Below are positions 9,694 to 26,701 of a stretch of 31,094 bases of DNA, piece after piece. The notes below the pieces were generated by a model. The model made no database searches and had not been told where the DNA came from. It saw only the letters and a list, made by a program, of their open reading frames with translations. Source of the DNA: a virus (lineage: Duplodnaviria > Caudoviricetes); IMG/VR virus record IMGVR_UViG_3300025646_000207, positions 1 through 31,094 of that record. One strand, 5' to 3'. The position numbers and the translations under genes were made by a program. Within the stretch, counting starts at the first letter, position 1; each line of letters starts with the position of its first letter.

Positions 9694-9993
9694 TTATTCT
9701 TTTACAAACACGCCATCAACGGTAGTGCCTTTTCTATCGACAATCTCATCATATGCTTGCCGCAAACACTCAGCAGGATCGAGACCAAGCTGTGCCGACA
9801 AGATAATAAGCGTTACAAGGCTATCTCCGATCGCGTCGATCGTGTCATCACGCTTGTTCTTGGCAATAGACCCAGCCAGTTCACCAATCTCTTCTGTCAC
9901 CTTGAGCATCTGACGTGTGGCGTTACGCTCTTGAATCAATCCTCGTTGATTCCCCCACTCGATGGTGGCCTGAATTAGTTCTGTGAAGTTCAT
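9694..9993 (-). CDS. MazG-like NTP pyrophosphohydrolase (99 aa)
   Basis: QMLKVTEEIGELA...DAIGDSLVTLIILSAQLG..ECL..AYDEI..RKG pattern. Confidence 0.85.
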   Translation of the reverse strand: MNFTELIQATIEWGNQRGLIQERNATRQMLKVTEEIGELAGSIAKNKRDDTIDAIGDSLVTLIILSAQLGLDPAECLRQAYDEIVDRKGTTVDGVFVKE

Positions 9994-12129: not shown

Positions 12130-12416
12130 TTTGAATATTTCTCTGCAAATCCGCCGCCGTAGTCCTTCTCCTCGTCTATAGACCCCTTCTCGCTTAAGTC
12201 CTTCACAAACTGATCCAGCTTCTGCATCTCAAGGATGAGCTCCTTGCAGTCAACAGCCGTTTGCTTGATAGACTGAAGCTCAGCCTTACGTGCGCTGCCA
12301 TTGATCTCAGGATCGACAGGCTTCTTTACCTCCTCGATCATGTTGTCTATGGCAACCTCCATGCTCTTCATCAACCTTACGGCTGCGTCTACGGTCTTGA
12401 ACTTATCCTGTGACAT
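12126..12416 (-). CDS. Helical protein, candidate terminase small subunit (96 aa)
   Basis: Helical, acidic C-terminus ending GFAEKYSK; position upstream of the terL/portal module (inference). Confidence 0.45.
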   Translation of the reverse strand: MSQDKFKTVDAAVRLMKSMEVAIDNMIEEVKKPVDPEINGSARKAELQSIKQTAVDCKELILEMQKLDQFVKDLSEKGSIDEEKDYGGGFAEKYSK

Positions 12417-12981
12417 ACATAATATCTTCTTCCCTCACGCGAAAATACACTCGATCATCTATAGTAACCTCGTAGTCAGAGTTCTTCTTAAAACCTACTT
12501 TATCATTTAGTTGAACGTCTATATCGTAACCTACTGGTAAACAAGTAACTATAGCTTCGTTTTTAATCTTTTTGTTTAAGTGATCTAATATAATCAACTC
12601 AGAATCAATGACTTCCTCTTCTTTAGTTGACTCAAGCAAGAACCACTTAGACAGGCAGTGTATCTCCCCGTCCTTGTTCTTGTAAGCAAAAGCTTGCGAC
12701 ATGGTAGGTCGATCTGGATCGTAGTGAACGAAGTACTTGTCTTCCTCCCAATCGAGCTTCTGACCTCCGTTGATAACCACCAAATGGTGGAAGTACAGGG
12801 TGTCGCCAACAGCTACAGGGGTGTCGTACTTCTTCGGCGTTGCCACTACCTCACCTTCAACTACTCTGTGCTTAAACTCATCGAACTTATTGTCTACGAA
12901 CAACTTAAGGCCGTTACTTAAAGTAATTTCGTCGTTAAGAGGCTTTTCTATTTTGACAATGAACGATTTAATAGAATTCAT
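12403..12981 (-). CDS. groES: GroES-like co-chaperonin with two tandem domains (192 aa)
   Basis: ITLSNGL...EGEVVATP...VAVGDTLYF and NEAIV...VQLNDKVGF...YEVTIDDRVYFRVREEDIM both resemble Cpn10. Confidence 0.7.
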   Translation of the reverse strand: MNSIKSFIVKIEKPLNDEITLSNGLKLFVDNKFDEFKHRVVEGEVVATPKKYDTPVAVGDTLYFHHLVVINGGQKLDWEEDKYFVHYDPDRPTMSQAFAYKNKDGEIHCLSKWFLLESTKEEEVIDSELIILDHLNKKIKNEAIVTCLPVGYDIDVQLNDKVGFKKNSDYEVTIDDRVYFRVREEDIMYVTG

Positions 12982-24803: not shown

Positions 24804-25001
24804 ATGATGATAGTGATGACGAATGAGCAGAAACGAGAGTACATGAACAAGAAGATAGTCACAGCTATGCACTACATACGGACGAACCAATATGGTTTTG
24901 CAGGTGCTTGCCTGAATGACTACGATGCAAAGATTGGCCTTGGATGGCCTTCAGCAGAAGAACACTTAATCGAACAGCTATGCGAGACGTACCCAATATA
25001 A
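24804..25001 (+). CDS. Hypothetical protein (65 aa)
   Basis: Operon packing; begins within repeat copy 2. Confidence 0.55.
   Translation: MMIVMTNEQKREYMNKKIVTAMHYIRTNQYGFAGACLNDYDAKIGLGWPSAEEHLIEQLCETYPI
24805..24824 (+). repeat. 20-bp direct repeat, copy 2
   Basis: Exact match to 22543-22562. Confidence 0.85.
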
Positions 25002-25177
25002 GAGTGTTTGTGAGTTTGGAGAAACGCAAGGGATCGTGGGTAGTGTGCGTGAGGAGGAGGGAAGACGGAACAGAAACGAAGGGAGTAAAGGGTTACTTCA
25101 ACAGGAAGTTTGAAGCAGTTAAAGAAGCCAACAAGATGGCTGAGTTGATAAACACAGAAGTAGTAATAAAGCAATGA
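24980..25177 (+). CDS. Hypothetical basic protein (~65 aa)
   Basis: ATGA overlap with the MTase start; start codon uncertain. Confidence 0.55.
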   Translation: MRDVPNIRVFVSLEKRKGSWVVCVRRREDGTETKGVKGYFNRKFEAVKEANKMAELINTEVVIKQ

Positions 25178-26082
25178 CACACGCAAGCTTATTTAGCGGA
25201 ATCGGAGGATTTGAATTGGCAGCGGAATGGGCGGATCTGGAGAACATATTCTCATGCGAGATAGAACCATTCAATCAACGAGTACTAAAACACCACTTTC
25301 CAAACACAGAATTACACACAGATGTCAAAGAACTACAAGCAGCTAAGTATAGAGGACGAATTGACGTCCTCACAGGAGGATTCCCATGCCAACCCTACAG
25401 CACAGCAGGACTCCGAAAAGGAAAGCACGACGAACGCCATCTATGGCCCGAAATGCTTAGAGTCATTCGGGAATGCCAGCCACGTTGGGTTGTGGGCGAA
25501 AACGTTCGCGGGCTTGTTAGTTGGAACGAGGGATTGGTCTTCGAAGAGGTGCACACTGATTTGGAACGTGAAGGCTACGAAGTACAAGCGTTTATACTTC
25601 CAGCTGCAAGCAAAAACGCGCCGCACAAACGAGACAGAGTTTGGTTTGTTGCCCACTCCAAACAGCTACGATTGGAACACGGCCAGATCGAAGGAGTCGT
25701 GGAACAAGGCGATAGAAAAGCACAAGGGAACACTACAGGTAAACCTGCGGCAGATGGCGAAGTTCGGGTTACTACCAACACCAACAGCGACGGATTACAA
25801 GGGAGCATATCCCCCGACGAGCATCGACAAGAACCCAGCGAGAAGAGGACTGCTTCGGAACGTATATCAGTACACGGGGGAGGAATATCATTCGAGAAAT
25901 TCCCAACTCAATCCCCGATTTGCGGCGGAGATGATGGGCTTCCCACCGAACTGGACGGAATCACCTTTTCTAAGTGGAGAAAAGAAAGCGTGAAGGCATA
26001 TGGCAACGCCATCGTTCCTCATATAGCTTATGAAATATTTGAGAGCATAAAAGAATACGAGAAAATAAGCTACCAATCATAA
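25174..26082 (+). CDS. C5-cytosine DNA methyltransferase, alpha (catalytic) polypeptide (302 aa)
   Basis: Motif I SLFSGIGG, IV GGFPCQ, VI GENV, VIII PHKRDRVWFV, X YGNAIVP; motif IX not recognisable in this frame. Confidence 0.93.
   Translation: MTHASLFSGIGGFELAAEWADLENIFSCEIEPFNQRVLKHHFPNTELHTDVKELQAAKYRGRIDVLTGGFPCQPYSTAGLRKGKHDERHLWPEMLRVIRECQPRWVVGENVRGLVSWNEGLVFEEVHTDLEREGYEVQAFILPAASKNAPHKRDRVWFVAHSKQLRLEHGQIEGVVEQGDRKAQGNTTGKPAADGEVRVTTNTNSDGLQGSISPDEHRQEPSEKRTASERISVHGGGISFEKFPTQSPICGGDDGLPTELDGITFSKWRKESVKAYGNAIVPHIAYEIFESIKEYEKISYQS
25322..25993 (+). CDS. Overprinted MTase beta polypeptide, variable region + motif IX (223 aa, +1 frame inside alpha)
   Basis: Two LLPTP modules and QLNPRFAAEMMGFPPNWT (motif IX-like); its paralog downstream is conserved in this frame. 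Confidence 0.82.
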   Translation: MSKNYKQLSIEDELTSSQEDSHANPTAQQDSEKESTTNAIYGPKCLESFGNASHVGLWAKTFAGLLVGTRDWSSKRCTLIWNVKATKYKRLYFQLQAKTRRTNETEFGLLPTPNSYDWNTARSKESWNKAIEKHKGTLQVNLRQMAKFGLLPTPTATDYKGAYPPTSIDKNPARRGLLRNVYQYTGEEYHSRNSQLNPRFAAEMMGFPPNWTESPFLSGEKKA

Positions 26083-26701
26083 ATGTCAAGAACTTACAAG
26101 CAAATAAGCATGAAGGACGAATTAACGTCATATCAGTACGCCACCTGCGGTCAGAGATGCTTAGACTCATTTGAGAAGCTACCCCGACCTACGTTGTGGG
26201 CGAAAAAGTTTGCGGCCTTATTGATTGGTCGGTCGGGCTGGTGTTCGAAGAGATGTGTGCTGACTTGGAGGTTGAAGGGTACGACATACAACCGCTCTTA
26301 CTTCCTGTTGTATGCAAAGAAGATCCCCACCGACGGGAATGGGTTTAGTTTGCTGCCTACTCCAACAACGAAGAACGTGACGGGCGGCGCGGTGCAAGTG
26401 AACGAAAACGGCAAGAGGCAAAACAAAGGCGGCACGGAATTCAGCGCACAGCTGCACGATCTAGCGAAGTCAGGAATGCTGCCTACGCCCAAAGCACAGG
26501 AAAACAGGGACAACGCTTCAGGAAGTTCCCAACTTTCGCCCCGATTTGTAGCGGAGATGATGGGTTTTCCCGTGAACTGGACAGAATTACCTTTCCAAAC
26601 TGGCGAGCCAAAAGCATATAGCTTATGAAATTTTTGAGAGTATAAAATCATATGAGAAAATCGTCTATGAAGACCTTGGTTTATTGACAAGACAATCGTA
26701 A
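26082..26701 (+). pseudogene. Decayed alpha-frame remnant of a duplicated MTase gene
   Basis: The -1 frame reads NVKNLQANKHEGRINVISVRHLRSEMLRLI*EATPTYVVGEKVCGLIDWSVGLVFEEMCADLEVEGYDIQ...; stops at 26172 and 26346; motifs I, IV and X missing; tail HIAYEIFESIKSYEKI retained at 26615-26662. Confidence 0.85.
26083..26628 (+). CDS. Stand-alone second MTase beta polypeptide (181 aa)
   Basis: Colinear with beta-1 (YKQ.S..DELTS, LWAK.FA.LL.G...W.SKRC.L.W, LLPTP, QL.PRF.AEMMGFP.NWTE.PF); ATG immediately after the alpha stop. Confidence 0.85.
   Translation: MSRTYKQISMKDELTSYQYATCGQRCLDSFEKLPRPTLWAKKFAALLIGRSGWCSKRCVLTWRLKGTTYNRSYFLLYAKKIPTDGNGFSLLPTPTTKNVTGGAVQVNENGKRQNKGGTEFSAQLHDLAKSGMLPTPKAQENRDNASGSSQLSPRFVAEMMGFPVNWTELPFQTGEPKAYSL

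Follow-up and report, generated by a model that had tools for sequence, protein, structure and literature searches.

The window, that is, the whole 31,094-nucleotide stretch of viral DNA analysed here, is a phage fragment whose sequence agrees exactly with part of an IMG/VR contig. It carries on its plus strand a gene, alpha (25174..26082), for a 302-residue putative C5-cytosine DNA methyltransferase catalytic chain. A second plus-strand gene, beta-1 (25322..25993), starts with ATG, lies wholly inside alpha in the +1 frame, and encodes, in 672 nt, a putative partner chain of 223 residues. A free-standing plus-strand gene, beta-2 (26083..26628), starts on the base that directly follows the alpha stop and encodes a 181-residue protein that is 38% identical to beta-1. 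Under and behind beta-2 runs a decayed alpha frame (26082..26663, plus strand). At the other end of alpha, a 77-codon ORF with a GTG start (24944-25177) and without a Pfam match overlaps the alpha start; this ATGA junction suggests translational coupling into alpha. Promoter- and terminator-like sites at the locus occur at about chance level, and no RNA dataset is found among the listed sequencing runs that match this stretch.

The minus strand of the window carries portal (phrog_6547) and large terminase (phrog_6681) genes. Near the terminase gene, on the same strand, are genes for a MazG-like nucleotide pyrophosphohydrolase (9694-9993) and a Cpn10 (GroES-like) domain protein (12403-12981). 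ERF and DUF3799 recombination genes lie downstream of the locus, and a search through the downstream gene found no close relative of this phage. The four sequencing runs that hold at least half of the sampled words of the stretch are freshwater metagenomes. Most of the 80 genome loci with beta relatives are labelled as Bacteroidota, so a Bacteroidota host is likely. A Pfam scan identified no restriction gene among the 27 proteins of the window. Across the window (1-31094), CCGG is seen 0 times against 32.8 expected and CTAG 21 times against 73.6, and GGWCC is also low; this depletion suggests avoidance of host restriction sites rather than the enzyme's own target.

Alpha falls in phrog_363, and its residues 5-172 match M.HhaI in a sequence search. 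PF00145 matches alpha with an E-value of 2e-45, but over residues 1-175 and profile positions 1-169 of 324 only. Alpha carries motifs I-VIII and X, among them, in order, I (FxGxG), IV (PC), VI (ENV), VIII (RxR), and X (GNA), and motif IX lies elsewhere, as the first-pass annotation had read from the letters of the DNA. The catalytic Pro-Cys of motif IV (CCA TGC, 25384..25389, plus strand) is invariant in the alignment of relatives. The conserved YGNAIVP (25999..26019, plus strand), which we take to be motif X by the established nomenclature of C5 methyltransferases, is close to the C-terminal end of alpha and just behind the beta-1 stop.

For comparison, we examined 170 loci, which give 150 complete alpha/beta pairs, three of them from the window's own contig; the scan of IMG/VR with beta-1 kept the best 80 of 533 relatives, and dereplication at 85% kept 107 of 145 relatives. 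In the 107 dereplicated relatives, alpha is conserved at residues 1-160 and 241-290 and unconserved at 161-240, with a column identity of 0.15-0.38 in this middle part, where the first-pass annotation had seen a low-complexity-looking stretch. The variable region and motif IX are absent from the catalytic chain, being in frame in 0 of 150 alphas, against the standard PF00145 layout.

The product of beta-1 reads LLPTP at residues 109-113, LLPTP again at 150-154, and QLNPRFAAEMMGFPPNWT at 195-212, the reading that had first drawn attention to the +1 frame and that is present as quoted. Residues 42-97 (25445..25612, plus strand) form a conserved helix/hairpin that includes the invariant residues G42, C45, W72, S74, and C77 and the predicted interface with alpha. 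Two candidate recognition modules follow, both delimited by the LPTP parse: module 1 (residues 109-149; 25646..25768, plus strand) and module 2 (residues 150-193; 25769..25900, plus strand), the latter common to seven other betas. Behind them lies the motif IX-like segment (SQLNPRFAAEMMGFPPNWT; 25901..25957, plus strand), the most conserved part of beta, with predicted contacts to alpha. In the alignment of relatives, beta is conserved at residues 42-113, at the second LPTP, and at 192-220. Beta-1 falls in phrog_1008 with an E-value of 3e-24. Of the PF00145 search that the first-pass annotation had proposed for both frames, the alpha part succeeds; the profile leaves beta-1 undetected (best E-value 0.073, in one of 69 beta family members), and it is PHROG 1008 that detects it. 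Beta has no match in Pfam, NCBIfam, or the sequences of solved structures, and a search of the ESM Atlas returns unnamed viral clusters only. Folded alone, beta is predicted with low confidence (pLDDT 57.9) and has no fold match. The labels "motif IX" and "recognition domain" for parts of beta are accordingly putative, given by position, resemblance, and model.

The open +1 frame is not due to chance. When alpha is recoded synonymously with the codon usage of the phage, the +1 frame is open over 223 codons in 0 of 20,000 recodings (mean 9.4 stops), and over the first 112 codons in 11 of 20,000. In 10 other genes of the window, the longest open +1 stretch is 101 codons. The +2 frame under alpha has many stops in the window; in the 107 relatives it has a mean of 13 under the overlap and is open in one. 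Frequent +1-frame stops in homologues, which the first-pass annotation would have counted against a gene, are not seen: from motif IV to the end of beta, the +1 frame has 0 stops in the 107 relatives, and upstream of the overlap it is open in one of them. A +1-frame Met precedes the conserved helix in 107 of 107 relatives and is at most five codons from the window's ATG in 70. Ahead of residue 146, the start is the only Met of beta-1. The beta offset is +1 in all 150 complete pairs, and the motif IX-like word is found in beta in 149 of them and in alpha in none, although these counts, like that of +1-frame stops in the 107 relatives, are biased, as most relatives were fetched via beta similarity. 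Among the 10 loci fetched via alpha instead, beta is present in nine, and the tenth is cut by the contig end.

The nucleotide diversity of codon positions indicates where each frame is constrained. At alpha third positions, diversity is 0.55 and 0.59 in the parts free of overlap but 0.43 beneath motifs VI-VIII and 0.22 beneath motif IX, and beta third positions are the most variable in the LPTP regions of beta (0.53 and 0.63). Each of the two frames is open and under selection, and along the gene the constraint passes from one to the other: it lies on alpha at motifs IV-VIII, on beta in the variable region, and on both at motif IX. Residues 3-41 of beta show the diversity pattern of alpha only and are therefore filler; within this part, residues 21-23 of beta-1 overlie the codons of the catalytic Pro-Cys. 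We conclude that 25322-25993 is a real gene in the +1 frame of alpha. The fully nested, same-strand gene of 672 bp in the first-pass annotation is thus verified in its coordinates and frame, and its product is very probably a real subunit.

The family is large, with 3,868 proteins among 7,999 scored, and is present in 24 of 401 genomes of one Bacteroidota family. The expectation that gene callers drop the nested gene is borne out for ESSI2_ev129 and E. coli 1223, where alpha only is annotated, but not for Paenibacillus phage Tadhana, where both ORFs are. Since records often annotate alpha only, cloning or characterising the enzyme from its annotation would overlook the second chain.

Other relatives show disrupted alpha frames. 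In nine of 290 distinct contexts (L130, L140, L146 (2940-2957), L147, L151, L170, L232, L367, and L381), motif IV of alpha reads GGFP*PCQ (GGFP*LCQ in two), with a stop and one extra codon just before the catalytic Cys; the rest of alpha is open over 216-281 codons. The stop is TAG in eight similar sequences and TAA in the unrelated-looking L130, and it is flanked by Pro codons in seven. It could reflect stop-hopping, an excision scar, or a dead lineage. In L173, L319, L321-L323, and L326, which are of Bacteroides type, alpha is split before motif IV (profile 20-57, then 60-295) with beta intact, and in L310 and L318 the motif X end of alpha is in another frame (profile 1-265, then 258-299). 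A contig with L063 (2889-3770) is short and carries two related alpha/beta pairs on opposite strands that share one module and differ in the last, possibly an inverted duplication or an assembly fold-back. In L452 (1299-2693), a frameshift puts the beta modules and motif IX in the alpha frame, and motif X is lost; this may reflect a defunct gene or a sequencing error, or else a path towards a one-chain form.

A structural model of the complex supports binding between alpha and beta-1. The predicted complex scores 0.88, against 0.00 for the best of three controls. Among solved complexes, 116 of 157 reach this mark; among mismatched pairs, 2 of 215 do. At least 85% of the contacts agree between runs, and the pLDDT of the partner is at least 66. 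In the model, residues 92-95 of beta pair with the strand 138-143 of alpha, 62-66 with the helix 287-295, 201-205 with 276-281 (motif X), and 211-212 with residue 37. The predicted contacts of the motif IX-like segment are made by the M204/M205 region to the same residues 276-281. This pass may stem from likeness to solved one-chain C5 methyltransferases.

To describe the modules, 308 distinct betas were cut at LPTP, which gives 623 modules with a median length of 41 residues and 0-5 modules per chain; single-module betas account for 63 of the 308. The recognition domains of the multispecific Bacillus phage methyltransferases are near 40 residues. Single-linkage clustering lumped many modules together, and the statements on module relationship below use a stricter parse (205 betas, 435 modules). 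The first module of beta-2 (residues 90-131; 26350..26475, plus strand) is present at 60% identity or more in 10 other, nested betas that are otherwise distant, with a median identity of 92%, and the backbones of these 10 betas are 45% identical to that of beta-2, against a background of 49%. Its relatives sit at positions one of two, one of three, two of three, and three of four. In this module, codon differences amount to 214 synonymous against 36 nonsynonymous when read in the beta frame, and to 7 against 240 in the alpha frame. Module 2 of beta-1 has seven relatives at 60% identity or more (median 70%), with 96 synonymous and 88 nonsynonymous differences in the beta frame and 15 and 163 in the alpha frame (six ungapped copies). 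Module 1 of beta-1 has related modules in the looser parse and none at 60% identity or more in the stricter one. In L081 and L085, the module of beta-2 and the second module of beta-1 occur within one nested beta.

The modules ahead of motif IX are therefore tandem and interchangeable: the same module is found at varied positions and with varied partners. They are discrete units that take differing positions in different betas, and they are shuffled between phages and selected in the frame of beta only, like tandem target-recognition domains. In accordance, alpha residues 161-240 under the modules are unconserved and unselected where the beta frame is selected, a result that is a conservation test rather than a specificity assay. 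The LPTP modules have no sequence or fold match to known recognition domains. Their position, modularity, and selection suggest that each module is a recognition domain, and we consider it probable that the modules set the specificity of the enzyme.

Beta-2 lacks the 19 codons that overlie motif IV in beta-1. The -1 frame of beta-2, which is the decayed alpha frame, has stops at 26172, 26346, and 26619. A 57-nt deletion has taken motif IV from it, kept the beta-2 frame, and removed only filler from beta-2. In addition, ENV has become EKV, the Arg of motif VIII is lost, and motif X is deleted between two CATAT pentamers. The tail behind beta-2 is identical to the alpha tail at 42 of 49 nt. At the 68 alpha columns conserved at 90%, the decayed frame has 20 gaps and keeps 36 of the 48 others, fewer than any of the 107 intact alphas; at a cut of 80%, three of the 107 are equally low. 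Beta-2 keeps 30 of 30 conserved beta columns at the 90% cut and 44 of 48 at the 80% cut.

A contig from a pond sample, about 90% identical, bears on selection on beta-2. It differs by 10 synonymous and 6 nonsynonymous codons in the beta frame (binomial p 0.001) and by 2 and 15 in the alpha frame; this comparison is of one contig at a depth of 3.2 and covers 20 of 26 differences, mostly in the variable region, with one row from another run excluded. The pond allele has Trp and Arg at the window's stop and Trp, and so is without two of the alpha-frame lesions of the window; it may be less decayed than the window copy. The second module of beta-2 has about 17 residues, whereas the lengths of last modules have their 5th percentile at 34. 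At this module, the pond allele exceeds the window copy by 45 nt. The short second module and the longer pond allele indicate that the window copy may be eroding. An assembly artefact is ruled out as the source of beta-2: beta-2 and beta-1 are only 75% identical in DNA, and the junction of the alpha end and the beta-2 start is spanned by a contig of a separate study, gap-free and with 24 differences over 779 nt. Beta-1 and beta-2 are not sisters in quick trees, and a test for one clade, which bears on an origin as a local duplicate versus one from another phage, gives a p-AU of 0.22. Beta-2 was kept while the alpha frame beneath it decayed. From its sequence, we lean towards beta-2 being an active alternative subunit.

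Free betas recur outside the window. Among the 322 distinct betas of the 465 loci, the alpha frame is open in 317, four are free (at three loci), and one is a frameshift fusion. The locus of Pedobacter albus KR3-3 comprises alpha with a nested beta plus one free beta, and that of G399, like P. albus one of the Sphingobacteriaceae, has two free betas in tandem. The alpha frame under the bacterial free betas has 5-13 stops, and the stretch over motif IV is missing from four of four free betas. Module types are redistributed, one type being nested in P. albus and free in G399. The three bacterial free betas are on long branches of the tree, and a test for a single origin of the four free betas gives a p-AU of 0.39. 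The two bacterial loci may share an origin, and similar-looking genes lie downstream of both, as judged by eye.

We propose that the locus encodes a two-chain C5 methyltransferase with a module-bearing beta-1 and an alternative partner, beta-2, and as a whole we regard this explanation as likely. Alpha would supply the catalytic motifs, and beta-1 the motif IX-like segment together with LPTP modules of about 41 residues that likely read the DNA. Translation of beta-1 would start internally, at ATG 25322, and that of beta-2 would be coupled to the stop of alpha. Docking of beta on alpha is predicted through residues 56-97 and 192-218, which would restore the contact between motifs IX and X that one-chain enzymes have. 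Beta-2 would provide an alternative partner chain with a different module; if each module is a target-recognition domain, alpha with beta-1 and alpha with beta-2 would methylate different sites. The purpose may be to shield the phage DNA from several host restriction systems, a role suggested by the lack of an identified restriction gene beside the locus. The first-pass claim that the nested gene completes the methyltransferase is supported by the purifying selection on beta-1, its motif IX-like segment, its predicted packing on motif X of alpha, and a distant match to a beta of the M.EcoHK31I kind. More tentatively, and with a little less than even confidence, the enzyme may be of a plug-in type, seen in the phage and in two Bacteroidota genomes, in which one alpha takes any of several betas with their own modules and extra betas arise when the alpha frame of a duplicate pair dies.

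Two other readings concern beta-2. Alpha with beta-1 may be the sole working enzyme, and beta-2 the leftover of a second alpha/beta gene that is dying and in which lesions have still to reach the beta frame; we consider this rather unlikely, yet well above the other alternatives. It would explain the truncated second module, the longer pond allele, and the rarity of free betas (4 of 322), and a decayed alpha frame is expected of any pseudogene. The lesions, however, are one-sided: in the alpha frame there are three stops, and motifs IV and X are gone along with 12 of 48 conserved residues, whereas the beta frame has no stop and has lost 0 of 30. Moreover, the 57-nt deletion preserves the beta frame and takes filler only, and the layout persists in two bacterial genomes in which the alpha frame has accumulated its 5-13 stops. 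Alternatively, beta-2 could act in regulation, as a decoy whose binding to alpha lowers or times methylation, rather than contribute a further specificity. A full docking surface and motif IX next to a last module that is a stub, when the last module is full-length in most nested betas, would suit a decoy. Such a role is improbable given that the first module is among the most conserved seen, that 63 of 308 betas carry one module only, and that the free betas of Pedobacter and G399 have full modules.

The remaining readings concern the division of labour between the chains. Beta might be a structural completion that provides motif IX, with specificity in alpha and the LPTP modules serving another end, for instance binding another protein or lending general affinity for DNA. 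The recognition domain of M.EcoHK31I is published as part of alpha, residues 241-272 of alpha are conserved here too, and the modules resemble no known recognition domain in sequence or fold. Alpha residues 161-240, by contrast, are unconserved and behave as unselected DNA under the modules (7 synonymous to 240 nonsynonymous differences). The modules also stand directly before motif IX, the usual place of the recognition domain (accessible text of PMC3404938), and are arrayed and shuffled like those of the multispecific Bacillus phage enzymes (as far as described in the accessible parts of PMC12707154 and PMC8936443). We therefore hold completion alone to be doubtful, if less so than a decoy. 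Least probable is that ribosomes shift from alpha into the +1 frame to yield a single polypeptide, a form that the DNA frameshift of L452, with modules and motif IX in the alpha frame, brings to mind. After a single +1 shift, translation would end at the beta stop and so not reach motif X; beta shows a conserved start of its own as well as residues under selection beneath motifs VI-VII; free betas exist; and M.EcoHK31I works from separate genes, according to the available part of PMC2836561. The two-chain enzyme with alternative partners is thus the reading that we prefer.

If true, one catalytic chain that swaps partners could methylate several sequences. If the LPTP modules are recognition domains, they would amount to a naturally occurring set of small C5 specificity units, exchangeable and carried on a chain of their own, of use for methylation tools and for insight into the anti-restriction of Bacteroidota phages. 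In beta-2, moreover, the release of the other frame provides a natural experiment on function versus filler in an overprinted protein.

The nested layout itself is of a known kind, since it is already published for M.EcoHK31I and common in phages; it has been described for one E. coli enzyme, yet the family is large. The first-pass annotation of the nested gene mentions neither this precedent nor beta-2. The alpha of M.EcoHK31I, from E. coli HK31 (YGGCCR; Lee, Kam and Shaw 1995), contains motifs I-VIII as well as X and is assigned the recognition domain, and its beta lies entirely in another frame of alpha, has motif IX, and is required for activity (accessible parts of PMC2836561 and PMC3404938). 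This beta tolerates loss of about 42 N-terminal residues, as stated in the available text of PMC2836561. A primer from the supplement of the same paper matches 73 of 5,426 E. coli genomes, and one locus so matched has a 309-residue alpha, a 176-residue +1-frame beta, and a convergent restriction endonuclease gene. Its alpha is 37% identical to the phage alpha over 196 residues. Its beta matches the phage beta profile weakly, at 22.7 bits (E 3e-9 for one comparison) against 16.1 for the best of 500 shuffles, and the shared alpha motifs force part of this +1-frame similarity. The E. coli beta is without LPTP and ends in GFPENWTL, which aligns with the motif IX-like segment of beta-1.

In M.EcoHK31I and in the phage enzyme, beta is wholly inside alpha in another frame (+1 in the E. 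coli locus and here), motif IX is on beta, and motifs I-VIII and X are on alpha; the N-terminal part of about 40 residues that is dispensable there is the part shed by free betas here. The phage beta, however, starts 54 alpha codons earlier (codon 50 versus 104), and it has LPTP modules where the E. coli beta has none. The published recognition domain is on alpha, whereas the middle of the phage alpha, residues 161-240, is unconserved and unselected. The E. coli gene, unlike the orphan phage gene, is convergent with a restriction endonuclease gene, and no extra free beta is seen at its locus. In M.AquI, a natural two-chain alpha/beta C5 methyltransferase (described in the accessible text of PMC3404938), part of the variable region and motif IX are likewise on the small chain, but so is motif X; here alpha retains motif X and contains the nested beta.

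Tadhana genes 54 and 55 belong to the same families (PHROG 363 for alpha, PHROG 1008 for beta) and have the same nesting. Both are annotated as "DNA-cytosine methyltransferase", and a survey of P. larvae phages lists them, in the part of the text available, without comment on nesting (PMC6070908). The accessible portions of PMC6755750, PMC4283147, PMC8788219, and bioRxiv 10.1101/2024.07.15.603628 contain nothing on nested or split methyltransferases. A literature search, which covered few subscription papers, found nothing on phage families so arranged, and likewise nothing on LPTP modules or additional beta genes. The Bacillus phage enzymes M.SPR, M.phi3TI, M.rho11, and M.H2I have tandem recognition domains in their variable region, and such multispecific enzymes are orphans that protect against many restriction systems (PMC12707154 and PMC8936443, in their accessible parts). 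They share with the enzyme described here the phage origin, the orphan state, and tandem modules of similar size in the variable region. They are, however, single chains; in the present case the modules are arrayed on a second chain, which is overprinted, and the array can be distributed among several genes. With its shuffled LPTP modules and freed second beta, the locus goes further than the known cases of nesting.
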